DNA of 64,000 nt from an uncultured Burkholderiales bacterium (GTDB lineage: Bacteria; Vulcanimicrobiota; Xenobia; Xenobiales; JADMJV01), in NCBI GenBank assembly GCA_964649085.1, contig CAZYPN010000002.1, forward strand, positions 158,991 to 222,990, read 5' to 3'. The notes below the pieces were generated by a model. It was given only the letters and a program-made list of their open reading frames with translations, did no database searches and was not told the origin of the DNA. The position numbers were made by a program, and so were the translations under genes. Each line of letters opens with the position of its first letter. The first letter of the stretch is position 1. Shown in pieces: positions 31,301 through 58,084 of the stretch.

Positions 31301-34300
31301 GACTGGAAGAAACCCTGCGGGAAAAGACCGAGCTGACCCAGCGACGCGAGTTTGAAACGCAACAGTTCAAAAGCGTGCTTGAGCAGCTGCTCGGTCAACG
31401 CCAGCTGCTGGAGAGCAAGCTCAAAGAAGTCGCGGCTCAGCGCAAAGAATTCCTGCTGGAACTGAAGCGCGAGCGCCAGCTCAGCAACCAGCAGCAACAG
31501 GACCTGACCCAGCTGCAAACCCGCTTTGACGAATCGCAGGCCCTGCTGCAGCAACAGCTGCAGCAGCTCGAGCAAGTACGTGGGTATTTCGACGAAGCTC
31601 GCCAGCAAGGCCAGCAGCTCCAGCAGCAGCTACAGCAAGAATTGGGGCGTTCCAGCCAGCTGGAAGAGCAGCTGCACCATCACCAAGAGGGCTGGCAACG
31701 CGACCGCGGCCAGCTGGAACAGGAACGGCAACAGCGGCAACGGCTCGAGGTTGAGGTCGAAGCTGGCCAACGTCAGCGCGGCCAACTGGAAAGCCAGCTG
31801 GACCAACAGCGTGCTCAAATCGAGGGCCTCGAAGTCGAGCTCACCAGGCTGCAGGCAGAGTCCCATCAAGATCAGCAGCGTCTGAAGCAGGAGGCCGAGC
31901 TTCTGCAGCGCCAGCTGGAGCAGCTGAGCAGCCAGCGCCAGGGCCTGATGGACAAGCTCAAAACCGTGGCCGGGGAAAGGGCCGACCTGAAGCAGGCGCT
32001 GCAGGCCCAGCAGGAAGAGCTGGCCGAAATCCAGCTGCGCCGTGAAGTGCTGGAACTGCGCCTCGTCCAGGTAGAGGGCGAACGCGACCTGCTGCAGTCG
32101 GAATCGGAGCAATACCGGCAGCGGGTCGACGAGCTGGAAGAGCGCCTGGAACGCAGCGCCTCCGACTTCCAACAGGCCCAGGAACAGCTCCAGTTGCTGT
32201 CGGAACTGCGCGCCCAGGGTGCGCGCCAGGAACAGCAGCTGCAGGCCCTGGAGTGGGGGCGGGAAGCAGACGGACAAAAGATCGGCGAACTGCAGCAACG
32301 GCTGGAACAGGTTGACCAGCAACGCCAGGCCCTGGAAGTGGAACTGGCCCAGGCACGTGGCCGCCTGGAAGAAGCCGCCGTTCGTCGTGAGGAGCTGCAG
32401 TCGGAGATCGAAGACGCGGCTCGTCAGCTGCAGGGCCTGCGTTTTGAAGCCTCCGAATTGCGCCAGTCCCAGCAGAAGTCCAAGGAGTCGCTGCTGCTCT
32501 CGCAGCAAAAGGTCGAACAGCTCGAGGCCGAGCTCGGTGAACTGCGCACCCAGCATCAACAGCTTCAGGAACAATCGGCTCGCAACGAGGAAGAGCTGCG
32601 GCTTCTGCTGCGCCAGAGCCAGCAAGAATCCGAAGAACATCGCCAACTGTCCGAGGAACTGCTGCAACAGACACGAGAGCAGTTGGAACAGAAGGAAGCC
32701 CACCTTCTGAAGCTGGTCGATACGCTGGGTCGCGCCAAGGACCGGATGCGCGACCAGAAGGCGCGCGTGGCCGAACTGGAAAGCGAGCTGGCACAGGTCC
32801 GTGAGCAGGCCCAGGAGCATTTTCAGAGACTGATTCGCGTGACCCGCGAACGAGAAGATCTGTCGGAACTGAAGCAGCGCGAATTGGGCGAGCTGCAGCG
32901 CCAGCTACAGGCCGCCAGCGCCGAACTGGAACAGCGCCAGCGCGAACTGCTGGCGCTGGAGGCGCAAAACCAGCTGCAGCAGCGCGAACTGGTCGAGCTG
33001 AGCCGGCAGGAAGTCGCTGCCGAAGAACAGCGCACTCTGCTGCAGTCGCAACTCTTTGAACTGGAACAACAGCTGCGCTCGGCAGCCGAAGACAAGCAGC
33101 AGCTGGAGCGAGAACGAGACAGCTGGCAAGACAGGCAAGAACAAACCCAAAACGAGCTGGAGCAGCTGTCCATTGAGCATCGCGAGGTGCTGGATTCGAG
33201 GCAACAGCTCCAGGCAGAGCTGGAGCGCCTCTCGGTCCAGCTGAGCCAGCTGGAAGAGCACTCGAGCAGCGATTTGCAGCAGCGAGAACAGCAGATTCAA
33301 AAGCTCGGCGAGGCCTATGCCAAAATCCGTCAGCGCTTCGTAGAAAACCAGCAGCAACTGGCCGAGGCCCAGGCCGAGCAGGCCGCGCTGCGGCAGCGAA
33401 ACGAGCAGATCGAGGCAGAGCTGGGCCAGGCTCATGAACGATTGGAGCAGTTGCAGAGCGAAGCTCGCCAGCTCGAGGCTCAGGTCCACGAGCGCCAACT
33501 TGAACTGCAAGATCAGCAGCAGCAGCTAGAGCAACAGCGCAACGAACTGACCCGCCTTGGCCAGGAGAGCGAGAAGCAACGTTTCGAGCTGCAGCGACTG
33601 GCCCCGCTGGAAGCCCAGAACCAGGCTCAACAACGCGAGCTCATGGCCCTGAGCCGACAGGAAGCCGAGCTGGAGGAGCAGCGACAGCGGCTGCAGTCGA
33701 ACCTGGAACAGCTGAACCTGCGCCAGCAGAAGCTCGAGGGTGAACTGGCCGAGAGCGAGCGACGCCATTCCAAACTACAGGCCGAGCACTTAAAGCTGCA
33801 GCAAAAGCAGGCCACGGCCGAGGCCCAACTCGAGAGTCAACAGCAGGAAGTCGAGCGACTGCAGACCGAGCACCGCCTGGCCCGGCGCGAGGTTGAAGAG
33901 CTTCAAGAGCAACTCCAGCAGCGCGAAGTATCGACCCAAAAGCTGGGCGAGGCTTATGCCAAAGTGCGCCAGAAGCTGGTAGAAACCCAGCAGCAACTGG
34001 CCGAAGCTCAGGCCGAGGCCGAGCAGCAACAACGCCGCGCCGACCGTCTTGAGGACGATCTGGGCGGGCTGAAAGAAGAGCTGCGACTGGCCACTTTCGA
34101 GCGCAGCGCCGCTGAAGAACGCTGGCGAGGCGCCAGTCAACAGGTGCAGCAGGCGGGCGAAGAGCGCGAACGTCTGTCGCAGCTCAACGAAGAACTCAAG
34201 TCGAATCTGCGCCACACCCAGCAACTGCAGCAACAGGGCGAAGCCGACCTGGTCGAACTGAAGTTGCAGCTGCAGCAGGAACAGGAGCGAGCCGGGCAGC

Positions 34301-37300
34301 TGCAGCAAAAATTGCAGCAGGCCATTGGACGCCTGCAGCACACCAAACAGGCACTGCAGCAACGTCAGGACGAGTTGCTGGCCGGCAAAGAGGAAAAACT
34401 CCAGCTGGAATCCGAGCTGGAACAGCGCCAGCAAGCCTATAGCGAGCTGGAGCAGCAGTTGCGCCAGGCCCAGCAGCGACTGGCGGAACTGGAACCCGAA
34501 GTTGAAGGGCAGCGCGGGTTGCGGCTCGAGCTTCACGGCCTGCGAAGCCAGCTCGACAGCCTGCAGCACCAGCTGCAGCGAGCCCAGCAGCGAGAACAAG
34601 CCCTGGAAAGCCGGCTGGAGCAGGCCCAGGTTCAAGAACAGGAGCTGACCGGCAAGCTGCAACGCAGCCAGGCCAAAGAGCGCGAGCTGGAGCATCAACT
34701 GCAACGCTCGCAACAGCGAGAGCGAGAGATCGATAGTCAGCTGCAACGGGCGGGCAGCCGCGAGCGCGACCTGGAACAACAGCTGCGAGCGGGTGTCGAG
34801 CAAGAAGAGCGTCTGCGGGCCCAGCTCACCCAGGCCTGGAGCGATCTCCAGCAATCCGAACTGCTCCAGCAGCGGCTGCAGGACGAATTGAGCCAGTCTC
34901 GCTCCCAGGGCTCGCGACGTGAGAAGCAGGTGGCCGGGCTGGAAGAGCAGCTGGCCGGCCTTCAGGAATCGCTCGAGCGGGCTCGGCTGGATGGCGAGAA
35001 GCAGCTGGAGCAACATCGCGAGCGCGAGAGCCAGCTGCTGGAACAGCTAGAAAAGCTGGGAGAAGCCCTCAAGCTGCACCGCAGCAAGGCCAACGAGGCC
35101 CTGGCCGGGCTGAAACAACGCAGCGAAGAGGTCAGCGGTGAGCTGCAACTCTCGCTCCAGGAGCGCCTGGAGCTGCGCACACGGCTCGACCAGCAGGAAC
35201 ATCTCCTGGAAGAGCTGCACCACGAAGTGGACACCCGGCGCCAGCGCGAGGCCCACCTCGAGCAGGCTCTGGCCGAGGCCCGGCGGCGCGGCGGCGAACT
35301 TCAGGCGCGAGCCGGCGAGCTGGCACAATCGCTGGACGAGAGCCAGAACTTCCGGCGGCTGTTGCAAGAAGAGCTGGCCCAACAGCGTGAGCAGAGCCAG
35401 CACGACCTGGACACCCTGAATGCTCGCCTGCATGAGGCCGAGTCACGCGGCCGCGACCTGGAGGAAACCCGTTCCTTACTGCTGGAACAAGAGCAGAAGG
35501 CCCACGAGTTGAGCCTGAAACTGCGCGAGTTCCAGCAAAGCGCCATCCTTCAAGAAACCGAGCTGCAGCAGCTTCGGCAATCGCTCAAGCACGAGGAAGG
35601 CAAGCTTCAACAGCAGCAAAAGGCCCAACTCCACCAGCAGGAAATGCACCAGCAAAGGGTGCTGCAACTGCAACAGGACCTGGCCGACTTGGAAGGGCGA
35701 CTCGAAGAAAGCGAGCGTAACAACCACAAGCGTGAGCAGATCATCGGCCAGCTCAAGCAGCGCCTCGGCCAGGCGATGCAAGACCTCAGCCAGCGCCAGA
35801 CCGAGCTCCATGAGTCGCAACTGAGCCTGGAGAGGGCAGGGCGCGAACTGGAACTGAGTCGCAGCGACGGCCTGGGCAAGGAAGCGCGCATCGCCGAACT
35901 CGAGCAAGACCTCGAGCAGCGCATCCAGCGTGCCAATTCTGCCCAGCAGGAAGTCGAGAAGCTCTGGCAGCGCCTGCAGCGCGAAGAAGAACAGCGAGCC
36001 CAGCTGGCCTCCGATCTGGAAAGGCACCAGCAAGAAGCCGACCGGTTGCAGCAGCAGCTGGATGAAGCCACGCTGGAAAAACGCCAGCTGTTGCTCGACC
36101 TCGACGACGCCGCCAATCAAAAACTGCAGCTGGCGCTGGAGCTCGATCGCTCACTGGAGCAAAAGACCGCGGAAATTCAGCGCTGGCAGAAGCTGCAGGA
36201 AGAACAGCAACGCCGCCAGGACGACCTGGAAGGTCGCCTATTACTGGCCCAACAGCGAATCGAGGTCCTGACCGGAGAGCTGGAAGAACGCGAAGCTCGC
36301 CTGCAGGCTGAACGCAAGTCGGCCCAGGACCGCCAGCAAGAGTTGCGGGGCCGACTGGAACGCCAGGTGCTGGAGGCGCAGGCCCAGCAGCTGGAGCGCG
36401 AGGCCCGAGTGCAGCAACTCGAGCGCGAACAGCGCAAACAAGCCGAAGAGCTGGAACGTCAGCTGCAGGAGTTGCAAACGCAGCGCTCGGCCCTCGAAGG
36501 CGAGCTGGCCAGCCTGAAGGCCCTGGGCCAGTCGAGCCAGGCCAGCTACCAGGCCCGAATCGAGCAGATGCAGCGCGAATACGAGGGTCTGCAACGCCAG
36601 CTCAGCGAGCAGGAAGAAGAGGTTCATCAGCAACGCCTGCGGGTCTCCCAGCTGGAGGCCGATCAGGTGCTGCTCAAGCAGGCACTGCACCAGTCGGAAA
36701 CCGCCGCTCAGCAGCAACTACAGCGTCTGGAACGCCTGCAACTGGAGCGCGAGGCTCTGGAACAGCAGTTGCGTCAGCAGGAAGAGCTGGCCCACAAACT
36801 GTCGCAGCGGGCCGAGGCCGCCGGGCAAGAAGGCGAAGAGCTGCAGCGACGTCTTGAAGACGAGCAGCTCTTGCGACAGAGCCAGTGGGACGACATGAAC
36901 ACGCGCCTGGTTGAGGCCGAACGCAGGCACGCCGAGAGCGAAAGGGCGCGCGAAGAGCTGAGCCATCGCCTCAATGACGGTCAGCTGAATTACGAGATGC
37001 AGCTGTCCGAGCTGCGCCGTCAGCTCGACCAGGCTCGACTGCGTCTGGAGCGCGAGGGCGAATTTGTGCAGGGCCTGCAGGAGCGCCTGAAAGAGTCGCA
37101 GGCAGCCCAAATCCGTTTACAACAGGAGCAAGGCGAGGGGCGCCAGCAGTTGCTCGAGGCCCAGGCCGAACTGGAGCGTGCCCAGCAGGCGATGGAACGC
37201 ACCCTGAGCGAGATGCAGCTGCAGGAACGCAAGGTGGAACTGAGTCGCGAGTCTCAGGAACAGCAAAGACAGCTGTTGTTGCAGCGGGAAAGCGAGTTGC

Positions 37301-38109
37301 ACCAATTGGAAGAGGTGCGGGCCCGCCTGGACCTGCAGGTTGCCGATCTGGACCAGGAACGCGCCCGACTGCAGAAAGAGTCGGATCAACTCCGTCAGGA
37401 GCTGCAGACCTCGGGGCACCGCCTGCGCGAACAGGAAGAACGAGCACGTCTGCTTCAGGCCCAGCTCAACGTGGCCATGCAGCAGGCCGAAGAGGCCGAT
37501 CACCTGCAGCTCATGCAGATGCAGTATGAGCAAGACCTTGCCCGTCTACGCGGAGAACTGGACCAGAAACAGGCCGAAATCGACCAGCTGCAAGCCCAGG
37601 CCCGCAGCCTGTCTCGATTGCCCAACGAACTCAGCGACCGGTCGCGTCGACTGGAAGAACAGCAGGCCGAAATCCAACGGCACCGCAGTCGGGTGGACGA
37701 ATTGGAGTCGGAACTCTCGGATAGCCGTTTCTGGCGCCGAGATGCGGAAACGCGCCTGGAACGCAGCCAGCAATCGCTGGCCGAGGCCCAACGCAGCCTG
37801 GAAGCCGCCCGGCTGGAACGCGAAGAGCTGCGACGACAACTCGACGAACTGCGCGGCCAGGATGTTCGCACCCCCTACCTGCGCGCCCAGGAAGAACTGG
37901 CCGCCCTGCGTCAGGAACTGGCCCAGGCCCGAAAGCGAGAGGAACGACCGCCCGAGCCCACCCCCGAGGCCAGCCCCCCGCCACCCCGCTCGCGCCCCAC
38001 CAGCCGTAAAGCGCCTGCCAGCAAGCCTCAGGCCTGGACCCTGTTGGAGGGCTCCGAGACCAGCAGCGATCCGGCCGGTGGTGGTCTGGAGTTACCGGGG
38101 TTCTCGTGA
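25381..38109 (+). CDS. Giant (4242 aa) coiled-coil protein, Q/E/L/R-rich, modular repeats, Pro-rich basic C-terminal tail
   Basis: Uninterrupted 12,729-nt ORF. Heptad-like Leu spacing throughout, e.g. 'LQQRLNESD...LEQLAQQL'. No enzymatic motif. C-terminus 'RKREERPPEPTPEASPPPPRSRPTSRKAPASKP...'. Start GTG at 25381 (uncertain; next ATG at 25459). Confidence 0.8.
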   Translation: MSHQQPITLQERLENIKQRASAVRGQMEGRPTRTDETREDWGAVGASLQVRLEQLSQRLQERDRQLAELQQRLNESDSGQGLRRKQLEQLAQQLSSSLDEKKVLQGQLHSAESQRQQLELQLQLVRDQLQEQQKLLGQSQGRVHDLRQELLQQQRRVRVVDRLQLQLDEAGLNLDDLLHSLAQLEGDSPLLQALRDQIGQLQGQLEASQQREQRLLQHLQDLKARQQDLEAEKNHLGSDFAELHRQLLENQRELGQARGELKRWMELRSEVDPELPREVQHLRERSQKLEAKLRQAVLALGESRQATEQEREARELAEQLLGKSQQRLVQLEVELDEQVSALQNSWEDVSRLEQELEQSRHHNRSLQLQVGSSDELQQRLLQSDQQAQELQQRLAHSDQETQQLRQQLQESRQQAASSAQQLEELEQQRSQLEQRLERAQLVLHELQNRAAEGQQEQVLRQQWEERALKAQARFHQAVERLRSQTEQLRQQQADLENWQLRSEQVQQSLEDSQERQVQLRRQLERWQEISGEWQRVAEVGQEGTAFLEQRLAEHQEQQLQAQQHSQELQQGLIQYQQDILQLGQALAELEESNRSLETELGLTRQERDQLHLRVEQLVEEGRARQHGFEQRWDKLKTRLGQVQSDLEYSQQRGLMLQDKLQQVVEVVREEKHAHQQTRQQKDQLQEALAQLQESARQKDSLLEQQRQELDTQSMALEESWEEAHRLGEDLERERQSAAQLRQQLQELRAQQDSLREERDALREHFEELLQQTDLEREESARELQRQLELNHEQTRALQLRLKEVSEELLSVQQRLQKAQQKLLQAVDSLRQERLLRQELSQQIDERDLMLEEQTQLLAQRAEELASAQHRWSSTDQQRQQLQANHLTTVAELEALRQEYETQVLALEESWEEASRLQESLDSERTRAQALEQQWAQAQQAQVQLLSQLDQLQAAYSELQSRHSGALEQQQQEQQALEQLHLQTTTLQEHLKHRVDQLQQLKALRDQSQQRALALEEKLRQAVVRLAEEKQARQQLAQQNDQLIAQLAQLEQEARQSQSDLVAVRQELETQLMALEESWAESSALQAALNEARAGAEQERKAHEEARARVEILQKAHQHEVSLREELEQELEELLQLQLQLEEEKQSHRHTGQNLEQVRQRLLAVEQERDQSEQRSQALEAKVLQLAELLKQHQQLRQAEKLKAQDRLQKFSDEVRQLRQQLSTSEEESATQQLALQEAWSEMSQLQEQLEAEQQKLLQLTEERGRLQVDMAELLAHSQLESQRSQQQIGELRTEIQALLGQRHKLVDELNTRGGQLKQLASNQGALLDQVKRQHQQIDTLRAQMEAREDDVAGLQRQLEEEEQQRRHLLDELEVATQASDLLQQELGERENELQSLHERLTRLDAALNQAQQQVSLLESQREASQAQLQQLSHNHAEQMDELTRQLQRREQELETLRQIEAGAQQALAQAQEELNRSQHQQQTQQQQLQHHRQEQSRLQETVERLGQRLSQVGGAFQQAKLQLAARTQQLQQVQDSRQQLEEELVLAQAHGQRETVRADEQLERADLLEARLEQLTAQQQELLVQVEQLHQQRVPREEWQALERQARAGDQEIQGLKAQLTDLQLALQQSEEWRESQQREREALESRLERTRQELVQAVEIQQGLKERLLSVVEKFRHSEALRQRQQEELEGLQEERRNWQLLEQELQGRVVQLEQMALEGHQQLSQERQQHEQQLLERDQLLESFRNELEQARDQVDQLARELIEAQDRTFQLQQELEVNEDESQRDRTRREELNSLVASLEQQLRQLGEESASRQEQLEDQLVHQEGQLKSGQQALLQAQSQLRLLQTERDKLVRAYQQSRQALIEHQQQAVEQQQKWEQVASELRVTRTQLGKTQEELQLAHLQVETLEGDLQRLESQRDELAQRSDSRFQEYENELAQLTVELTEKRQEAYRLRNSGEGLRQENQSLTRRLEETLREKTELTQRREFETQQFKSVLEQLLGQRQLLESKLKEVAAQRKEFLLELKRERQLSNQQQQDLTQLQTRFDESQALLQQQLQQLEQVRGYFDEARQQGQQLQQQLQQELGRSSQLEEQLHHHQEGWQRDRGQLEQERQQRQRLEVEVEAGQRQRGQLESQLDQQRAQIEGLEVELTRLQAESHQDQQRLKQEAELLQRQLEQLSSQRQGLMDKLKTVAGERADLKQALQAQQEELAEIQLRREVLELRLVQVEGERDLLQSESEQYRQRVDELEERLERSASDFQQAQEQLQLLSELRAQGARQEQQLQALEWGREADGQKIGELQQRLEQVDQQRQALEVELAQARGRLEEAAVRREELQSEIEDAARQLQGLRFEASELRQSQQKSKESLLLSQQKVEQLEAELGELRTQHQQLQEQSARNEEELRLLLRQSQQESEEHRQLSEELLQQTREQLEQKEAHLLKLVDTLGRAKDRMRDQKARVAELESELAQVREQAQEHFQRLIRVTREREDLSELKQRELGELQRQLQAASAELEQRQRELLALEAQNQLQQRELVELSRQEVAAEEQRTLLQSQLFELEQQLRSAAEDKQQLERERDSWQDRQEQTQNELEQLSIEHREVLDSRQQLQAELERLSVQLSQLEEHSSSDLQQREQQIQKLGEAYAKIRQRFVENQQQLAEAQAEQAALRQRNEQIEAELGQAHERLEQLQSEARQLEAQVHERQLELQDQQQQLEQQRNELTRLGQESEKQRFELQRLAPLEAQNQAQQRELMALSRQEAELEEQRQRLQSNLEQLNLRQQKLEGELAESERRHSKLQAEHLKLQQKQATAEAQLESQQQEVERLQTEHRLARREVEELQEQLQQREVSTQKLGEAYAKVRQKLVETQQQLAEAQAEAEQQQRRADRLEDDLGGLKEELRLATFERSAAEERWRGASQQVQQAGEERERLSQLNEELKSNLRHTQQLQQQGEADLVELKLQLQQEQERAGQLQQKLQQAIGRLQHTKQALQQRQDELLAGKEEKLQLESELEQRQQAYSELEQQLRQAQQRLAELEPEVEGQRGLRLELHGLRSQLDSLQHQLQRAQQREQALESRLEQAQVQEQELTGKLQRSQAKERELEHQLQRSQQREREIDSQLQRAGSRERDLEQQLRAGVEQEERLRAQLTQAWSDLQQSELLQQRLQDELSQSRSQGSRREKQVAGLEEQLAGLQESLERARLDGEKQLEQHRERESQLLEQLEKLGEALKLHRSKANEALAGLKQRSEEVSGELQLSLQERLELRTRLDQQEHLLEELHHEVDTRRQREAHLEQALAEARRRGGELQARAGELAQSLDESQNFRRLLQEELAQQREQSQHDLDTLNARLHEAESRGRDLEETRSLLLEQEQKAHELSLKLREFQQSAILQETELQQLRQSLKHEEGKLQQQQKAQLHQQEMHQQRVLQLQQDLADLEGRLEESERNNHKREQIIGQLKQRLGQAMQDLSQRQTELHESQLSLERAGRELELSRSDGLGKEARIAELEQDLEQRIQRANSAQQEVEKLWQRLQREEEQRAQLASDLERHQQEADRLQQQLDEATLEKRQLLLDLDDAANQKLQLALELDRSLEQKTAEIQRWQKLQEEQQRRQDDLEGRLLLAQQRIEVLTGELEEREARLQAERKSAQDRQQELRGRLERQVLEAQAQQLEREARVQQLEREQRKQAEELERQLQELQTQRSALEGELASLKALGQSSQASYQARIEQMQREYEGLQRQLSEQEEEVHQQRLRVSQLEADQVLLKQALHQSETAAQQQLQRLERLQLEREALEQQLRQQEELAHKLSQRAEAAGQEGEELQRRLEDEQLLRQSQWDDMNTRLVEAERRHAESERAREELSHRLNDGQLNYEMQLSELRRQLDQARLRLEREGEFVQGLQERLKESQAAQIRLQQEQGEGRQQLLEAQAELERAQQAMERTLSEMQLQERKVELSRESQEQQRQLLLQRESELHQLEEVRARLDLQVADLDQERARLQKESDQLRQELQTSGHRLREQEERARLLQAQLNVAMQQAEEADHLQLMQMQYEQDLARLRGELDQKQAEIDQLQAQARSLSRLPNELSDRSRRLEEQQAEIQRHRSRVDELESELSDSRFWRRDAETRLERSQQSLAEAQRSLEAARLEREELRRQLDELRGQDVRTPYLRAQEELAALRQELAQARKREERPPEPTPEASPPPPRSRPTSRKAPASKPQAWTLLEGSETSSDPAGGGLELPGFS
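32950..34030 (+). repeat. Two diverged ~640-655-nt direct repeats inside the giant coiled-coil gene
   Basis: 'EAQNQ(L/A)QQREL(V/M)(E/A)LSRQE' at ~32957 and ~33610. 'QKLGEAYAK(I/V)RQ(R/K)(F/L)VE(N/T)QQQLAEAQAE' at ~33298 and ~33938. Confidence 0.5.
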
Positions 38110-52565: not shown

Positions 52566-54281
52566 TCAGGCCGGGTCGTAACTTTCGCCGATGGCATCCT
52601 CGGGGTTGGCCGCTTCGTCTTCCTTGATATAGGCCTGCAGCGTGTCGTCGACGCGCTTCACCTGCCAGATCTTTTGGCAGCCCTGGAAGTAGAACTGCTG
52701 CCCCTCGTTGATCATCGCCTGGTTCTCTTCCTGAGCCCCCTGGCGAATCTGACGAATGCCGTACTCGCACTCTTCCACGCCCTGATTGAGCAACTCGAGC
52801 GAGTCGGCACAGAGGTCGATCACCTCCTGGAGCTTGGCCCGCTCTTCCTCTTCCACTTCGTCGGGAATGGGGGGTGGGTGCAGCTTGCTCAATTCGGCTT
52901 TGGCGCTGTCGATGTTGGCCTGGCTTACATCCAGCTTGGCCATCAGCTCATCGATAGGCAACTTACCGCGCAAAAACTTGTCGCAGCTCTCAAAGAGGTC
53001 CTTCATGACGTCGGTGACGACCATGTCGCGAGAACTATCGCTGGCATCGCCCTCGAGCACCTGGAAGCTGCTGGTCGAACTCCAGCTGCTGTAGACGTCG
53101 GAACCGGCCATCTGGGGCAGGCTGGCGCCGCACTTGGCGCAAAACTTGGCCGGCGCATTGGGTGTGGAACAGGCCGGACAAATCACTTTTCCATAGCTCT
53201 CACTGTGGGCCTCAACGTTCACGCGGGCGCCGTGCACCGTTTGCGTACCGCTCTCGAGGTCTTCCAGAGCCTGAACGGCGTCGTCGGCCGAAGCCGTACC
53301 GTCGCAGTAAGCGATCAGAACCGTCAGGGCCTCCTCCATGAGCTCCATGGCCTCGAGCATCTTGGGGGTCTCTTCCTGAATGACCGTAGAGTCGTTGCTG
53401 GCCTTGACCACCAGCTGCAGGTCGCCAATGCTTTTCTGCAGCCGCTCCACCTGGGGCACGCACAGATTGCGCAAAACACCCGGCTGGATCTTCTTCTCCA
53501 GCACGCTGTCGGCGGTTTTCAAGATAATGTTGATGGCCGCCGACGGGGTTGGGCTGGAAGTGATCGATTCGTTGAATTCGTCGACTGCGGCATCCAGGTT
53601 GGAGTGACCCTGTTCCAGGTCGCGGGTCAGTTCCTCGAACTTGGCGGCCGACGACCCGGGGGTCAGAGCCTTGAGCGCCTGCAGAGCAGCCACGATGCTC
53701 TCCAGGGCAGCCCGCCGGGCCGGCACGCCCGGACCGTTCTTCTCCTTACTGTTGTCGATCTCGCGAATGGCCTCCGCATAGAACACCTCATACTGGTTGC
53801 AGGTGCCCTGCCAGCCCTCGATGGGCGCCTTGCCCTCGCGAACCAGCTTGCCGAGATTGGCAAACAGGTTGATCAGCGGATACTTGCTCGGCCCCTCGGA
53901 AAGGAACCGTTGCTCATAGGCCGCCATCGCCGACTGCAACCCGGCCGAACAGAAGGCCAGCACGTGGGCTGACTCGTCGAGCAACTCGGGGCGAGGATCC
54001 GCCTTAAAACTGAGGATCTGCTCGAGTGCCGCGTCGTAGCCTTCGAAATACTTGGCAATCAGCTCAATTTCGTTCTTGAACTTGGCCTGAAACTCGGCCC
54101 CCTGCTTTTCAGTACCGGCGAAAAAATTGTCCGAAGCCTGAGTCAGCGCGTCCTGTCGGGCCTGGGCCATGTGCTCCAGCTCAGGGTAGGCCCTGGTGTC
54201 GCCGGCGGCGACCTCCAGACATTTGTCGATCAGCGCCTGGGTCTCGGCGGATTGGCTGACGGGCTTGGTTGCTTGGCTCAT
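52566..54281 (-). CDS. Zinc-ribbon-containing coiled-coil protein, unknown function
   Basis: Trimmed to Met 'MSQATKPVSQ'. Double CxxC ribbon 'CPACSTPNAPAKFCAKCGASL'. Long helical acidic regions. ATGA overlap with upstream GNAT gene. Confidence 0.5.
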   Translation of the reverse strand: MSQATKPVSQSAETQALIDKCLEVAAGDTRAYPELEHMAQARQDALTQASDNFFAGTEKQGAEFQAKFKNEIELIAKYFEGYDAALEQILSFKADPRPELLDESAHVLAFCSAGLQSAMAAYEQRFLSEGPSKYPLINLFANLGKLVREGKAPIEGWQGTCNQYEVFYAEAIREIDNSKEKNGPGVPARRAALESIVAALQALKALTPGSSAAKFEELTRDLEQGHSNLDAAVDEFNESITSSPTPSAAINIILKTADSVLEKKIQPGVLRNLCVPQVERLQKSIGDLQLVVKASNDSTVIQEETPKMLEAMELMEEALTVLIAYCDGTASADDAVQALEDLESGTQTVHGARVNVEAHSESYGKVICPACSTPNAPAKFCAKCGASLPQMAGSDVYSSWSSTSSFQVLEGDASDSSRDMVVTDVMKDLFESCDKFLRGKLPIDELMAKLDVSQANIDSAKAELSKLHPPPIPDEVEEEERAKLQEVIDLCADSLELLNQGVEECEYGIRQIRQGAQEENQAMINEGQQFYFQGCQKIWQVKRVDDTLQAYIKEDEAANPEDAIGESYDPA

Positions 54282-54892
54282 GGTGTCTCCCCGGATGTAG
54301 TTTGTTGCCCTTCGCGCCGCTTGCGGGTGCGCAGCAGACGGCTGACCGAATGGCTTCGTTCGGCCAGCGGACGCCCCGGCATTCGCACCGGACCTTCGGC
54401 TCCGCAGGCCATCGTGAGCTGATATCGCTCGATATCGAATCCTACCTGGATAGCGCTGAGCAGGGCTCGCTCGTTGCTGGCAGAGACTTTCGCGGTCATA
54501 TAGCGATACCCTCGCTGATGGGTAATGCGGGCAGCCTCGCGCACCAACGCGTGCCCCACATAGCGGCCCCAATACGCTTCCTCAACGCCCATGTTGAAAA
54601 GAAAACTCTGACTCTCGCCGGTAGACTCCTCGATATGGTGGAACTCGAGGATGAGAAAACCCGCCGGCAGATGTTCTTTGTGGGCGTCGACGGCCACCAG
54701 CACGGCGAAATCGCGCTTGCGCAAAATCCACTGGTCCAGCTCGTGCAGCGAGGCCTGGGCCCGCTCCAGCACCTGAGCCGTGGGAATGTCGCGGCTCTCG
54801 GGAATGCCCTGCCCCACCAGCTCCAGCGAGAGGCGGCGGATGAAATCCATGTCCGACAATCGCGCGCGGCGAACCTCAATGCCTGGTGTCAC
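54278..54892 (-). CDS. GNAT-family N-acetyltransferase
   Basis: Acetyl-CoA-binding-like 'RYVGHALVREAARITHQRGYRYM' plus overall GNAT topology. ATGA overlaps on both sides. Confidence 0.65.
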   Translation of the reverse strand: MTPGIEVRRARLSDMDFIRRLSLELVGQGIPESRDIPTAQVLERAQASLHELDQWILRKRDFAVLVAVDAHKEHLPAGFLILEFHHIEESTGESQSFLFNMGVEEAYWGRYVGHALVREAARITHQRGYRYMTAKVSASNERALLSAIQVGFDIERYQLTMACGAEGPVRMPGRPLAERSHSVSRLLRTRKRREGQQTTSGETP

Positions 54893-56280
54893 GACGGGCC
54901 CTGCTTCAGACGCAAGGGCGAACCTTTCAAGGCCACTTTCACCTTCAGCCTTTCGATCCGCAGTTGCAGATCTCCCGGTAGTGGCAACTGCTCCAAAGCT
55001 CGCAACTCTCCCTGAGCCCGTAGGGGCTGGTCGGCCTCCAAGAAAAGCTCGGCCAGCTCGAGCTGAGCCTCAAGATTGGCCATATCCTGGGGCAACAGCT
55101 GCAGAGCACGTCGATAGCTCTTCATGGCGGCCTGAGGCTGTCCTGACTGTCGCTGTGCCCGCGCCAACTCGCGCAGCAACTCGACCCGCGAACCCGGGTC
55201 GGACAGCTGTAGCTTGAGGGCCTCCTGCAGGCAGGCCTCGGCCTCGGTCGGGCGACGTCCCAGGCTCCAGGCCCGTGCCAGCAAACCCAACAAATGCCTT
55301 CGCGATAAGGGATCGGCGCTCTCACCCCAGTCGGCGAGCAACTTCTGCCAACGCTCCGCGGCAGCCCGATAACGCTTTTGCTCAAAATCGATGAAGCCCC
55401 TCAGATAGTCGGCCTTGCCGGGCGTGACCTGCCCCAGCCAGTGCTCGGCCTTGATATAGTTCTTGCGCAGCCAGTAGAAGGCGGCCACATCGAAGGCGTC
55501 GACCTGATATTCAGGCACCAGAGTCGCAGCCTGCTCGAACCCCGGGCCCTGATGGTCCTGACCGCTGCCCCAGGCCCGGCACACCAGAGCTGCAGCCCGC
55601 AGACCGGCCACCTCCTGGCTGAGGTCCTTCAGGCTGTGGAAGGCCGCCATCCAGGCTTCGACCTCAGAACGCTGCCCCTTGCCCAGCATTTCGCAGAGGT
55701 CGCCCAAGTAGCGACGGCACAGCGGCGTGTAGCCTCCGATCACCGAGTAGGCCACGGTGGTGGCCTGAAACTGCAGGCCCCGCAGTCGCTCGAAGAGCTG
55801 CAAAGGATCTTCCCAAACCCCGTCGCTGGCGTCCAGGAAATAGTCCACATCGATGTCCAGCAGCCAGCTGCGCTCATCGGCTCGCGGCAGAACCTCGCTG
55901 GTGCACACCACCAATCGGGCTCCGCGGAGCTGGCCTACCACCCGATGGTCTTCGAGCTTGAGCGAATTGAACTCGGGCAGTTGCAGGGGAACCCAGGTGG
56001 GAAGCTCGTGAAAACACCACTGCAGCAGGTCAGAGTGGCCCTGGCAGAGATGGGGAGGCACCACCCACCAGACTTCGCTGACGATGCCTTCCTGAACGGC
56101 CTTCAGCAGATAGTTGGCGCAGTTGACCTCGGGATGCTCCACCTGCAGGTCGAGGGGCGCCTGAAACTCGGCCATGTCCAGATGGGCGTCGATGTGCAGG
56201 CAGGCAGCCCCTCGAATACCCATTTCCTTCCACAGGAAATAGGCATCCCGATGGTCCTCCATCATACGAAGCGGTCCCAT
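54889..56280 (-). CDS. UPF0489 (C5orf22-like) N-terminal domain fused to TPR repeats
   Basis: N-terminus 'MMEDHRDAYFLWKEMG...CLHIDAHLDM...NYLLKAV...VWWVVPPH' parallels the UPF0489 pattern 'VVEDHQEV...LHFDSHPDL...NWIMPAV...VIWFHP'. C-terminal half has TPR-like 34-aa repeats. Confidence 0.5.
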   Translation of the reverse strand: MGPLRMMEDHRDAYFLWKEMGIRGAACLHIDAHLDMAEFQAPLDLQVEHPEVNCANYLLKAVQEGIVSEVWWVVPPHLCQGHSDLLQWCFHELPTWVPLQLPEFNSLKLEDHRVVGQLRGARLVVCTSEVLPRADERSWLLDIDVDYFLDASDGVWEDPLQLFERLRGLQFQATTVAYSVIGGYTPLCRRYLGDLCEMLGKGQRSEVEAWMAAFHSLKDLSQEVAGLRAAALVCRAWGSGQDHQGPGFEQAATLVPEYQVDAFDVAAFYWLRKNYIKAEHWLGQVTPGKADYLRGFIDFEQKRYRAAAERWQKLLADWGESADPLSRRHLLGLLARAWSLGRRPTEAEACLQEALKLQLSDPGSRVELLRELARAQRQSGQPQAAMKSYRRALQLLPQDMANLEAQLELAELFLEADQPLRAQGELRALEQLPLPGDLQLRIERLKVKVALKGSPLRLKQGPS

Positions 56281-56397
56281 GGGCCACAGTTCAGGACTCT
56301 GCCTGGCAGGTCCTCTGTGGCGGTTCGGGCTCCCCTTACCAAGAAAAAGAGACCCGCGGAACCCGCGGGCCTCTTTTCATTTCAGGTTGCTCTGGAT

Positions 56398-57174
56398 TTA
56401 GAAGAAGCCAACGCCACCGGGGGCGCAGCCGCAGAACGGAGGACGACCGAAGGGCGGGAACTGAGGCTGCATCATAAAGTTGCCGCCGCCGCAGCCCATA
56501 TAGCCGCCGCCACCCTGGCCCATCATCATCACCTGCATCATCATCATCGTGGACATCATCTGCGACATCATGCCCATCATCATCATCTGCTGCATCATCG
56601 GATCCTGGCCATAGCCCTGTCCGGGATAGGGTCCACACTGGGGCCCACCGTAGCCACCACCATAGGGAGGAGCATAGCCACCACCGTAGCCGCAGCCGCC
56701 GCCGTGATAGGGGGGCATCGGGGGGGGCTGAATGCCACCGCAACCGTTGCCGAACGAACCATTGCAGGGGCCGAAGCTGGCGCAGTTCTGAGCCTGACCG
56801 GCCTCGCCCAGCGGGCCCACACCGAAGAGCTTCTGCACACCACCGTCGAGCCAACCGATTGCTCCGGCAGCGGCCTGACCGACGAACGGGCCGGCCATCG
56901 AGCCCAGGAAGGGCATTCCGAACATACCGCCGATGGCGAAGCCGGCGATGCCGCCGACAATCGGGTCGCCCAGCACGTTCTTGGCAGCCGACAGACCGCC
57001 GTGGAGAACGTGACCTACGCCTTTAAAAAGTCCTTTACCAACCGAGCCGAGGGCGCCAAGGGGGTCACCACTGACCAGTTTGACTGCGCCGTCGACCACA
57101 CCGCCGACGACCGATTTGGCTCCACGCCAGACGCCTCGTGCGACGTCAACTACTCCGCGTACTACACCACCCAT
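56398..57174 (-). CDS. Low-complexity Gly/Val-, Gly/Tyr/Cys/Pro- and poly-Met-rich protein
   Basis: Trimmed to Met 'MGGVVRGVVDVARGV'. Segments 'GYGGGYAPPYGGGYGGPQCGPYPGQGYGQ', 'MMQQMMMMGMMSQMMSTMMMMQVMMMG', terminal 'CGCAPGGVGFF'. Confidence 0.4.
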   Translation of the reverse strand: MGGVVRGVVDVARGVWRGAKSVVGGVVDGAVKLVSGDPLGALGSVGKGLFKGVGHVLHGGLSAAKNVLGDPIVGGIAGFAIGGMFGMPFLGSMAGPFVGQAAAGAIGWLDGGVQKLFGVGPLGEAGQAQNCASFGPCNGSFGNGCGGIQPPPMPPYHGGGCGYGGGYAPPYGGGYGGPQCGPYPGQGYGQDPMMQQMMMMGMMSQMMSTMMMMQVMMMGQGGGGYMGCGGGNFMMQPQFPPFGRPPFCGCAPGGVGFF

Positions 57175-57260
57175 GTTCTTGTCCCTCCAGATTTTCGTTG
57201 TCGAAACTTCTCTTGCCCAGTGTATCCCCCGGTACCGGGGAGCCGACAAGGGCTTAAATG

Positions 57261-57300
57261 TTGAACATTTGCAACAAGTTTGTTTCAAAAGTGTTAACCA
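57261..57300. promoter_or_regulatory. AT-rich palindrome-dense element in divergent intergenic region (candidate promoter/operator for map and/or the Gly/Met-rich gene)
   Basis: 'TTGAACAtttgcaacaagtTTGTTTCAAaagTGTTAACCa'. Contains inverted TTGAACA/TGTTTCAA, palindromic TTGCAA and GTTAAC. Shares TGTTAACC with the rpsB upstream region. Confidence 0.3.
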
Positions 57301-57334
57301 GGCTTTCGTCGGCGCCATCCCGAACCCCTGGCCC

Positions 57335-58084
57335 GTGAATCTCGTCACCGACAAGCAAGACCTGCAGATCCTCCGACAGTGTGGTTTGCTCGTGGCCGAT
57401 ATCCTGGACACCGTTTCGGCGGCGGTAGCCCCCGGGATCTCTACGGGCGAGCTCGACCAGATGGCAGCCTCCATGATCGAAGCCGCCGGGGCCATTTCGG
57501 CGCCGCGCAAGGTGTATAACTTTCCTGGCAGCATTTGCATCAGCCTTAATGACGAAGCGGTTCACGGCATTCCCGGAGAGCGCAAGGTACAGGCTGGCGA
57601 CCTCGTCAAGGTAGACGTCACGGTGGAATACCAGGGATGGATCACCGATGCCGCCCGAACCGTGGTGGTGGGTCCCAGCGATCCTCAGGCCGAACAGCTG
57701 GCGCGCTGCTCCGAAACCGCTCTATTGAAGGCCCTGAGCCTGGCGCGCGAGGGCAGGGCTCTTTGGGAAATCGGCCTGGCCGTTGAAAGCGTGGTCAAGC
57801 GGGCGGGTTTTCGCGTGTTGCGCCAACTCTGTGGGCACGGCGTGGGGCGCAGCATACACGAGAGCCCCGTGGTGCCCAATTTCTACGATCGGCGCTACAA
57901 GGACAGGCTGCGCGCCGGGCAGGTGATCACCATCGAGCCCATTCTAGCCCTGAGCACCGAGGAAATCGTTACCGACCCCGACGGCTGGACCTTGCGCACC
58001 CGCGACGGTTCGGTTTCAGCCCACTTCGAGCACAGCCTGCTGATCACCCAACGAGAGCCCATTATCCTGACCCTCAAGCCATGA
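57335..58084 (+). CDS. map: Methionine aminopeptidase, type I
   Basis: 'VNLVTDKQDLQILRQCGLLVADIL' aligns to the MetAP N-terminus. Metal ligands in 'DLVKVDVTV', 'HGVGRSIHE', 'ITIEP', 'HFEHSLLIT'. GTG start chosen by alignment. Track ORF begins earlier (57080). Confidence 0.8.
   Translation: MNLVTDKQDLQILRQCGLLVADILDTVSAAVAPGISTGELDQMAASMIEAAGAISAPRKVYNFPGSICISLNDEAVHGIPGERKVQAGDLVKVDVTVEYQGWITDAARTVVVGPSDPQAEQLARCSETALLKALSLAREGRALWEIGLAVESVVKRAGFRVLRQLCGHGVGRSIHESPVVPNFYDRRYKDRLRAGQVITIEPILALSTEEIVTDPDGWTLRTRDGSVSAHFEHSLLITQREPIILTLKP

Follow-up and report, generated by a model that had tools for sequence, protein, structure and literature searches.

To our knowledge, peptide arginases have so far been described solely as enzymes that mature small secreted RiPPs. 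They carry the motifs EEH(N/H)EAF, DXHXD and LDIDLDYFSC, with six His/Asp ligands for Mn (PMC12703449, PMC10028609). In the selidamide RiPPs a peptide arginase is followed by a GNAT, so that Arg is converted to Orn and then to N-delta-acyl-Orn (Hubrich et al. 2022, PMC8784127), and where the arginase is absent the GNAT acts on Lys, as in nostolysamide (PMC8784127). PMC10028609 raises the question of whether members of the wider PF12640 family, human C5orf22 among them, act on proteins as modifying enzymes. Here we describe a gene for a low-complexity (LC) protein in a 64,000-nt stretch of contig CAZYPN010000002.1 (the window), whose operon partners point to a post-translational Arg-to-ornithine modification. 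A first-pass annotation of the window had described the LC protein and missed the operon, in which genes for a predicted peptide arginase, for a GNAT and for a helical protein with a zinc ribbon follow directly downstream.

The LC ORF (57174..56398, minus strand) has its ATG at 57174 and its stop codon at 56398-56400 and encodes 258 aa (Table 1). Its longest listed form runs to 57540 (380 aa); the Met start at 57174, already named by the first-pass annotation, is right because the MGG at this position is the start in all homologues. The stop codon is followed by a 16-bp GC hairpin and a U-run, and comparable hairpins lie 3' of the LC gene in L001, L006 and L008; an Rfam Leu_leader match at 56346-56422 was below threshold and represents the terminator hairpin only. 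One alternative is that the ORF is a spurious product of GC-rich, triplet-repeat DNA and that the real gene is an antisense His-rich ORF (55378-57264, plus strand), which is open across the LC gene in the window (628 aa) and in 7 of 12 orthologues. The sense frame, however, is free of stops in all 12 orthologues whereas the antisense frame is interrupted in 5, nucleotide differences between orthologues fall mostly at codon position 3 (4/4/34 for L005 versus L012), the gene has its own Shine-Dalgarno site and terminator, and the protein is conserved down to 40% identity. Frame conservation and codon-position substitutions refute the spurious-ORF reading, the probability of which is negligible, and the antisense ORF is an artefact. 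The LC ORF is a genuine gene, as the first-pass annotation had maintained, and it is conserved.

Table 1. Features of the LC gene and its operon (positions in the window)
Feature	Position	Strand	Basis
LC gene, modular low-complexity protein, CDS including stop	56398..57174	-	ORF, family, frame conservation
Shine-Dalgarno GGAGGG, 8 nt 5' of LC ATG	57183..57188	-	read from sequence
Intrinsic-terminator-like hairpin and U-run between LC and arginase genes	56344..56378	-	sequence
N-terminal hexapeptide M-G-G-V-V-R, Arg6 the proposed arginase target	57157..57174	-	residue-6 covariation
Residues 1-70, Gly/Val/Arg-rich predicted amphipathic helices, 11-residue (hendecad) repeat	56965..57174	-	periodicity, AF2
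Residues 71-110, 'GDPIVGG...' hydrophobic glycine-zipper segment	56845..56964	-	hydropathy, family conservation
Residues 111-190, conserved 'N..FGPxNG..GxGGxxPP' linker with Cys, then G/Y/P-rich repeats	56605..56844	-	alignments
Residues 193-218, Met/Gln-rich tract after conserved D-P cap	56521..56598	-	sequence, homologues
Residues 219-258, Gly/Cys/Pro tail with aromatic end (...FCGCAPGGVGFF)	56401..56520	-	recurrent in family
Predicted PF12640/UPF0489 peptide-arginase domain fused to C-terminal TPR repeats, 463 aa	54889..56280	-	Pfam, OspR alignment
Predicted GNAT acyltransferase, ~190-200 aa, 4-nt overlap with arginase stop	54278..54892	-	PF00583, E 5e-7
571-aa all-helical protein (Zn571), CPxC...CxxC zinc ribbon at 53130-53180	52566..54281	-	

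The LC protein founds an unannotated, lineage-specific family in the Vulcanimicrobiota (= Eremiobacterota). A first word-based protein search with the LC protein gave 7 matches, a short list explained by the absence of NCBI MAG LC proteins from that protein collection; a later word-indexed protein search, swamped by low-complexity words, gave 9, and a scan of genome contigs with the single LC protein returned no matches. The family was reached via the 571-aa partner protein, with further members recovered by synteny, and an exhaustive profile search (E<1e-10) yielded ~16 clusters at 50% identity with lengths of 155-311 aa. All named sources of its members are Vulcanimicrobiota/Eremiobacterota MAGs. 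Weaker matches (P0036-P0055) lie outside the family; they are large proteins with Gly-rich repeats. Scans of Pfam and NCBIfam with the LC protein gave no match at E<=1, and a profile search of the PDB gave nothing but a weak match of the LC N-terminus to FtbJ, which is compositional and not homology. We take FtbJ to be a tape-measure protein, and the comparison touches the Gly-rich regions of phage tape-measure proteins. The weak profile matches to FtbJ (9j1k, from a monocin tail-like bacteriocin structure; PMC11830787) and to the phasin/apolipoprotein-like P0052, at E 0.02 to 1e-3, are both compositional and do not imply family membership.

The translation (G 28%, M 10% with 25 Met, P 9%) contains all the strings quoted in the first-pass annotation (GVVRGVVDVARGV, GIAGFAIGGMFGMPFLG, GYGGGYAPPYGGGYGGPQCGP, MMQQMMMMGMMSQMMSTMMMMQVMMMG and ...CGCAPGGVGFF), and the zoning it described, from Gly/Val through Gly/Tyr/Pro/Cys to poly-Met, is present. 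Across the family the N-terminal ~130 aa are conserved and the C-terminal part is hypervariable. An AF2 model built on a 7-sequence alignment reached a pLDDT of 45, which does not suffice for a fold search, so structural statements are soft. Two helices are predicted at low confidence in the N-terminal region (2-34 and 38-68), where the hydrophobic periodicity is 3.7 (= 11/3) and the Gly periodicity 5.6 when summed over 31 family members. In their 11-mer repeat and 3.67-residue hydrophobic periodicity, residues 1-70 resemble apolipoproteins, phasins and alpha-synuclein. Residues 71-110 are possibly a membrane-inserting hairpin, to judge from their hydropathy, with a top Kyte-Doolittle 19-mer mean of 1.47 that lies below the classical transmembrane threshold. 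Residues 111-190, in whose region the DNA carries a repeat of 12-nt period (56645-56691), are predicted to be disordered. The Met tract itself holds 17-18 Met in 26 residues, is encoded by an imperfect (CAT)22 array at 56521-56587, shows periodic polar residues and is covered by a predicted AF2 helix (192-220, pLDDT ~60). Beyond it, the C-terminal Cys cluster and a terminal F/Y/C recur across the family.

The first-pass annotation had also asked whether the Met and Cys tracts are conserved. The C-terminal Cys cluster is recurrent, whereas the Met tract occurs in only about half of the family: the pattern '[DN]P..MMMMG.MM' is found in P0002, P0004, L005, L008, L012, L016, L006, P0031 and P0034 and is absent from P0003, P0005, P0007, L015, L017, L019, P0022-P0026 and others, with repeats of QQPWG, GFPGG, QQPYG or PSYPSY at the same position elsewhere. 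The tract is thus an optional Met/Gln-rich helical module. This bears directly on the earlier suggestion that the LC protein binds or sequesters Cu(I) or Ag(I), its Met runs and Cys ligating these soft metals as in CusF, PcoC and CueO. The suggestion draws on the 25 Met, including a near-continuous tract, on the 7 Cys of the C-terminal half and on a similar Met tract in at least nine homologues, and the resemblance to CusF, PcoC/CopC and the Met-rich insert of CueO lies in an abundance of Met and in neighbouring Cys and His. Copper sites rich in Met are as a rule located in the periplasm. The N-terminus of the LC protein, however, is not signal-peptide-like: it is charged at residues 6, 10, 13, 17 and 20 and lacks a hydrophobic core. 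The protein has no homology to these copper proteins and no match to any Pfam or NCBIfam metal domain, and metal-homeostasis genes of the cop/cus/pco type adjoin the LC gene in 0 of 18 loci. In contrast to Met-rich Cu(I) proteins, its Met runs are uninterrupted, lie in a predicted helix that has a conserved D-P cap and polar residues at periodic positions, and are dispensable, giving way to aromatic/Gly/Pro repeats in about half of the family. A role in Cu(I) or Ag(I) binding is therefore very unlikely, and the LC protein is more likely to be a structural protein that undergoes chemical modification than one that binds copper.

Other analogies to the tract, by likeness and not by homology, are the Met/Gln/Gly/Ser-rich, helix-prone segments and disordered G/Y/Q/P tails in low-complexity or prion-like regions of eukaryotic TDP-43 (its C-terminal conserved helix) and yeast Pbp1/ataxin-2, and the SRP54 M-domain with its 'methionine bristle'. 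Met-rich segments of these types are plausible surfaces for self-association or promiscuous hydrophobic binding. Unlike the eukaryotic Met-rich regions, the LC protein is bacterial, probably membrane-tethered and, judging by its operon, apparently enzyme-modified. Self-association, which the first-pass annotation had raised as self-assembly or phase separation, is plausible, being compatible with a disordered G/Y/P/Q/M tail and a predicted Met-rich helix.

The LC gene heads a conserved operon, for which we collected 18 distinct loci. The order LC, arginase, GNAT, Zn571 is found in 10 of them; the remainder comprise LC-arginase-Zn571 (2/18), LC-GNAT-Zn571 (3/18), LC-Zn571 (1/18) and LC-arginase on short contigs (2/18). 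The LC gene lies directly upstream of the arginase in 14 of 15 arginase-bearing loci. LC and Zn571 form the most persistent pair, the sole content of L006. One genome (L010 = L011 = L014) has arginase, GNAT and Zn571 without an adjoining LC gene, so that the enzymes may act on a different substrate, or the LC gene may have moved. The operon sits in a housekeeping neighbourhood (rpsB-tsf, htrA, luxR) common to the window, L005 and L010. A methionine aminopeptidase gene (57080-58084, plus strand) was considered as a member of the system and rejected, its adjacency not being conserved at other loci.

The gene downstream of LC, labelled 'hypothetical protein' by NCBI, encodes a distant PF12640 peptide arginase with intact catalytic motifs and a predicted activity. 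The Pfam score for PF12640 is 31.1 bits against a gathering cut-off of 27 (residues 6-148), with TPR families also matching, and PF12640 is likewise recorded for the L022 orthologue. A profile matched OspR (8BRP) at E 4.6e-9, and the residue-level alignment places MEDHRDAYF (EDHRDAYF at 56236-56259), HIDAHLD (56176-56196) and LLDIDVDYF (DIDVDYF at 55837-55857) on the corresponding OspR motifs. All 13 orthologues retain the six metal ligands, with motif variants such as DLDVDYL and DDHKKAY. The protein thus shares with the RiPP peptide arginases (OspR, KspR/PhaR, FlmR/OhkR, PbsE) the PF12640 domain, the three motifs and the six Mn ligands, and its gene too adjoins that of an Arg-bearing putative substrate. 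It differs in carrying a ~230-aa C-terminal TPR domain, and in the literature searched peptide arginases are nowhere mentioned together with tetratricopeptide repeats. From FlmR/OhkR it is very divergent, scoring 23.2 bits on NCBIfam NF052474 against a cut-off of 350, and it is not a member of that family.

The GNAT is present in 13 LC-bearing loci. Among solved structures, those nearest to it are N-alpha or small-molecule acetyltransferases, which match weakly (Naa40 at 2e-4; PaiA). A Gly2 N-myristoylation-like modification was also considered; the GNAT is a single domain that none of our comparisons linked to N-myristoyltransferases, and the idea is speculation. The true start of Zn571 is M98 of the listed ORF, and the resulting protein (~571 aa) consists of four-helix bundles and a zinc ribbon. 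An arginase and a predicted GNAT-fold acyltransferase (PF00583) adjoining a putative substrate gene recall the selidamides, and a further parallel is that arginase-less substrates carry Lys in place of Arg, as nostolysamide does and as L017, L024 and L025 do here. The LC operon differs from the selidamide systems in that no LanM-type lanthionine synthetase gene was found in any LC locus examined, in that the LC protein has no NHLP/Nif11 leader, and in that the target probably lies at the very N-terminus.

The identity of LC residue 6 tracks the enzymes. It is Arg in 14 of 14 arginase-bearing loci, Lys in 3 of 3 loci that have the GNAT and lack the arginase (L017, L024, L025), and Gln, with an MFG start, in the single locus without either enzyme. 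The Lys6 loci belong to two independent lineages, each sister to Arg-type members with arginase, and both also show a G2→S change. P0026 combines Arg6 with an otherwise Lys-rich N-terminus; we forecast an arginase downstream, which was then found (L026). The covariation amounts to only three or four evolutionary transitions, and a metagenome scan for additional Lys-type loci returned only the known L017 contig. Because R6/K6/Q6 tracks the arginase and G2/S2/F2 tracks the GNAT, the LC protein is a candidate arginase substrate, with Arg6 converted to ornithine and subsequent acylation near the N-terminus, the reading that we favour over the alternatives, at about even odds. The covariation is hard to account for if the LC protein is instead an unmodified disordered or membrane scaffold working with the 571-aa helical protein only, while arginase and GNAT act elsewhere, be it on the 571-aa protein or on a small molecule. 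That reading fits the persistence of the LC-Zn571 pair, down to its isolation in L006, and the genome with all three partners and no LC gene; the arginase forecast for L026, however, was borne out, and we judge it unlikely.

The origin of both enzymes in RiPP maturase families (PMC12703449, PMC8784127) also suggests that the LC protein could be a giant RiPP precursor, in which the N-terminal ~130 aa would act as leader and a hypervariable, Cys-rich C-terminal core would undergo modification and cleavage and leave the cell as a small natural product. A conserved N-terminus with a hypervariable C-terminus fits the leader-core pattern, a terminator hairpin lies directly 3' of the 'precursor' gene, and an Arg is found 3-6 residues from the C-terminus in 10 of 14 arginase-bearing loci as opposed to 1 of 4 arginase-less ones. 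At 155-311 aa, however, LC proteins are not short leader-core peptides; protease, transporter, cyclase and other maturase genes are absent from every locus examined, residue 6, and not the C-terminal part, shows the strict covariation, and the window LC protein lacks a C-terminal R-F motif. The conserved housekeeping setting of the operon on the chromosome is a further difference from the RiPP arginase systems, and a RiPP precursor is accordingly quite unlikely.

Our model of a modified LC protein builds on the reality of the gene, its family, the operon, the catalytic motifs and the residue-6 covariation. We infer that the arginase would hydrolyse Arg6 to ornithine, possibly also the hendecad Arg17 and Arg28 and a C-terminal Arg, and that the GNAT would then acylate an amine at the N-terminus, either the side chain of Orn6 or Lys6 or the alpha-amine of Gly2 or Ser2. 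The modified N-terminus, together with the amphipathic and Gly-zipper region, would probably keep the LC protein at the cytoplasmic membrane, where its sticky low-complexity tail would probably self-associate or bind the helical-bundle partner. In its fullest form, which is possible and which we hold tentatively, this would be a new bacterial protein-maturation system that acts on a full-length cytoplasmic protein. A TPR-guided arginase (acting on Arg6 and maybe other periodic Arg) and a possibly fatty-acyl GNAT would yield a lipid-anchored scaffold, the Met/Gln/Gly/Tyr tail of which would enter a membrane-tethered assembly or condensate with the talin/vinculin-like four-helix-bundle zinc-ribbon protein.

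Even without modification, the LC protein is a real lineage-specific low-complexity protein for which a copper role is unsupported, and it offers a natural bacterial example of a Met-rich low-complexity module. The operon provides a concrete case for protein modification by the PF12640 family, with a putative site at Arg6, Lys and Gln variants that track enzyme loss and a partner GNAT. If the proposal is true, this would be the first ribosomal ornithine in a housekeeping protein instead of a secreted RiPP, and the protein-arginase role proposed for human C5orf22 would gain a bacterial model. For the poorly studied Vulcanimicrobiota/Eremiobacterota, the operon offers a first clue to the function of a conserved set of genes that lack annotation.

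The low-complexity gene (LC) described in the first-pass annotation is present on the minus strand, and every peptide string quoted from its product was found. The protein is 28% Gly, 10% Met (25 residues), 9% Pro, 9% Val and 3% Cys, residues 193-218 read MMQQMMMMGMMSQMMSTMMMMQVMMM, and the DNA of its GYGG region is a periodic array with a 12-nt period. By ORF listing the frame reaches up to 57540; the start assigned at 57174 is correct, because all homologues begin at MGG. All 12 of the 12 orthologues keep the sense frame open. In pairwise comparisons of orthologues across the first 78 codons without gaps, nucleotide differences at codon positions 1/2/3 were 4/4/34 (L005 vs L012), 18/12/50 (L001 vs L018) and 17/13/43 (window vs L005); this excess at position 3 marks purifying selection acting on the reading frame. 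LC is thus a real gene, as first claimed, and that it is a spurious ORF is scarcely credible. The His-rich ORF opposite, which spans the LC and downstream arginase genes and in which the Met tract reads as a run of His (HHHHLHHHHRGHH...), is an artefact that arises because the GC-rich antisense frames contain few stops; in 5 of 12 orthologues stops interrupt it. A terminator-like hairpin lies right 3' of the gene in the window, L001, L006 and L008, consistent with the first gene being expressed more highly than the enzyme genes; an Rfam Leu_leader match (26 bits vs a gathering score of 50) coincides with this hairpin and is not a leader.

Positions of the LC operon and of other features in the window
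Feature	Position	Strand	Remark
LC ORF	56398-57174	minus	258 aa; ATG 57174, stop 56398-56400
GGAGGG	57183-57188	minus	8 nt 5' of LC ATG
16-bp GC-rich hairpin, then UUUUUCUU		minus	directly 3' of LC stop
Imperfect (CAT)n array	56521-56587/99		DNA of the Met tract
Leu_leader match (rejected)	56346-56422	minus
Antisense His-rich ORF (rejected)	55378-57264	plus	628 aa
Arginase (ARG)	56280..54889	minus	N-terminal PF12640/UPF0489 + TPR repeats; directly downstream of LC
Acyltransferase (GNAT)	54892..54278	minus	PF00583; next after ARG
Methionine aminopeptidase (M24)	57080-58084	plus	divergent from LC
TamB/AsmA/DUF748-type protein	14817-20567	plus	1916 aa
Gln/Leu/Glu-rich ORF	25381-38109	plus	4242 aa
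ORF with N-terminal polyketide-synthase dehydratase-like segment and class I/II aminotransferase domain	62393-63937	minus

The ARG product, named only 'hypothetical protein' at NCBI, scores 31.1 bits on PF12640, above the gathering score of 27. This is the peptide-arginase family (OspR, KspR, PhaR, FlmR, OhkR, PbsE), which converts peptidyl-Arg to ornithine and whose defining motifs, EEH(N/H)EAF, DXHXD and LDIDLDYFSC, bear six Mn ligands (PMC12703449, PMC10028609). A profile of three ARG orthologues matched the OspR crystal structure 8BRP (E 4.6e-9), and residue-level alignment placed the first motif of OspR, IMEEHNEAFFIW, on MMEDHRDAYFLW, LHVDEHSDL on LHIDAHLDM and LDIDIDYFS on LLDIDVDYFL; all six metal ligands are kept in 13 of 13 orthologues. 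Its score on the model for the characterised FlmR/OhkR enzymes, 23 bits vs a 350-bit cut-off, places it far from that subfamily, and we found no mention of a TPR fusion of a peptide arginase in the searchable literature. The nearest solved relatives of GNAT are weak (Naa40, E 2e-4; PaiA), as is a rimI match (E 9e-4).

We surveyed 18 distinct LC-bearing loci. The order LC-ARG-GNAT-Zn, where Zn (Zn571) is a 571-aa four-helix-bundle zinc-ribbon protein, occurs in the window, L001, L005, L008, L012, L015, L016, L018, L019 and L020; LC-ARG-Zn in L002 and L022; LC-ARG, at contig ends, in L021 and L026; LC-GNAT-Zn in L017, L024 and L025; and LC-Zn in L006. ARG-GNAT-Zn with no adjacent LC is found in L010 (= L011, L014), from Vulcanimicrobiota MAG SCN18_25_8_15_R3_B, where an RNase II gene occupies the expected LC position and the LC gene may lie elsewhere in the genome or have been lost. 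Because rpsB-tsf, an HtrA-like protease and a LuxR regulator surround the operon in the window, L005 and L010 alike, it looks like core genome and not a mobile biosynthetic island. Upstream neighbours of LC vary (L008 891-2201; L002 4897-5952; L024 952-2019; L020 1150-2940): in L008 ftsZ is the second gene upstream, both L002 and L024 have a T2SS/T4P platform gene (T2SSF) upstream in divergent orientation, and L020 has an NRPS-like gene there (AMP-binding, PP-binding, condensation). The methionine aminopeptidase beside LC, whose product begins M-G-G, is probably a coincidence since the adjacency is not conserved in other loci.

The identity of LC residue 6 follows the enzyme content of the locus: it is Arg in 14/14 arginase-bearing loci (R-type), Lys in all three that have GNAT without arginase (K-type), and Gln in the sole locus without either enzyme. 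A naive Fisher test (14/0 vs 0/4) gives p = 1/3060, a value that ignores phylogeny, the real independent events numbering about three. In a neighbour-joining tree of LC N-terminal domains the K-types fall in two separate lineages (L017 and P0025 sister to R-type P0007/L020; P0030 sister to R-type P0026), from which we infer at least two losses of the arginase, both accompanied by R6→K and G2→S. The periodic residues Arg17 and Arg28 have likewise become Lys in L017, leaving a single Arg in the whole protein. From Arg6 of P0026, in an otherwise Lys-rich N-terminus, we predicted beforehand an arginase downstream, and it was found ('...LLMEDHREAYFFWKE...CVHVDAHLDIS...'). The pattern matches exactly what is documented for selidamide RiPPs, in which Orn produced by a peptide arginase is acylated on the side chain by a GNAT and arginase-less pathways use Lys (PMC8784127). 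M-[GS]-G begins LC in 13/13 GNAT-bearing loci and Phe stands at position 2 or 3 in two of three GNAT-less ones (MFG in L006, MGF in L022), so GNAT content, too, singles out this N-terminal peptide. In L024, a 359-nt spacer (2625-2983) separates the K-type LC gene from GNAT, in the place taken elsewhere by the arginase gene (1.4 kb); deletion of that gene may have left the spacer behind, and its called 114-aa ORF resembles nothing compared.

Pfam and NCBIfam scans of LC gave no match. A word-indexed protein search returned seven metagenomic homologues, and a profile search run exhaustively against 1.84 billion representatives yielded 16 clusters at E<1e-10; further members came through synteny, and the first list was short because their exact sequences are absent from the protein collection searched. 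All sources bearing an organism name are Vulcanimicrobiota / 'Candidatus Eremiobacteraeota' MAGs. The architecture is modular. An almost invariant start, M-G-G-x-x-R, opens a Gly/Val/Arg-rich stretch of ~70 residues with a hydrophobic period of 3.7 (= 11/3) and a Gly period of 5.6, probably a hendecad amphipathic helix; a hydrophobic glycine-zipper segment ('GDPIVGG...', Kyte-Doolittle mean peaking at 1.47), a conserved linker ('N..FGPxNG..GG..PP'), a hypervariable low-complexity tail and a Cys/aromatic C-terminus (...CGCxPGGPRxFF[CY], ...CCPCQCRFA, ...GHRFC, ...APGANSFF) complete it. An AF2 model from a 7-sequence alignment, of low confidence (pLDDT 45), predicts helices at residues 2-117, disorder at 134-190 and a helical Met tract at 192-220 (pLDDT ~60). 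P0006 equals P0007 (L020 3111-3776) until the GFPGG repeats and then runs out of frame (VAFPVVAFPVV...), a frameshift that stems from faulty assembly or from true slippage in the low-complexity DNA.

The Met tract, for which Cu(I)/Ag(I) binding had been proposed, is conserved only in part. A homologous '[DN]P..MMMMG.MM..M..MMMM' recurs in the window protein, P0002, P0004, L005, L008, L012, L016, L006 (the longest, with poly-Q), P0031 and P0034, is weaker in L018, P0032 and P0033, and is absent from P0003, P0005, P0007, L015, L017, L019, P0022-P0026, P0029, P0030, P0056 and P0057, which carry QQPWG, GFPGG, QQPYG or PSYPSY repeats instead, or just a short tail. What sets the sister proteins of L016 and L015 apart is precisely this Met helix, present in the first and missing from the second. 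The tract is thus a conserved yet optional module, which suggests that selection keeps a sticky, disordered tail generally and not a Met-specific ligand set. This dispensability, the lack of metal-homeostasis genes in any of the 18 loci and the lack of a signal peptide on LC all argue against a Cu/Ag-binding protein, which we consider very unlikely.

Beyond the gene, family, operon, intact motifs and covariation documented here, we infer a chemistry, localisation and assembly for LC. LC would be the substrate of ARG, which would turn Arg6 into ornithine, and GNAT would acylate the N-terminal peptide at the Orn6/Lys6 side chain or the residue-2 alpha-amine. The modified N-terminus, cationic hendecad helices and Gly-zipper would hold LC to the membrane's inner face, and through its tail (here with a Met/Gln helix) LC would self-associate or bind the four-helix-bundle partner. 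We hold this core proposal to be about evenly poised between right and wrong: the covariation speaks for it, tempered by one genome with the enzymes and no adjacent LC, the few independent transitions and the low-confidence LC model. That LC is an unmodified scaffold and the enzymes act elsewhere is unlikely, if the most plausible of the rivals. A C-terminal Arg (R-F-C/A or PRxFF), found in 10/14 arginase-bearing vs 1/4 arginase-less loci and absent from the window LC, is a possible second modification site; that LC is a giant RiPP precursor whose core lies at the C-terminus is, in our view, rather improbable.

Elsewhere in the window, the 4242-aa ORF (Q 20%, L 17%, E 16%, R 11%; no Pfam match) accounts for a strong positive AT skew at 24-38 kb, and its composition points to a giant coiled-coil protein.

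The peptide-arginase family and the arginase-plus-GNAT logic are already known; the TPR fusion, the protein-sized, low-complexity putative substrate family, the zinc-ribbon helical partner and the housekeeping context of the ARG-GNAT operon in an under-studied phylum appear to be new. With the LC operon, whether PF12640 enzymes act on proteins can be put to a direct test.
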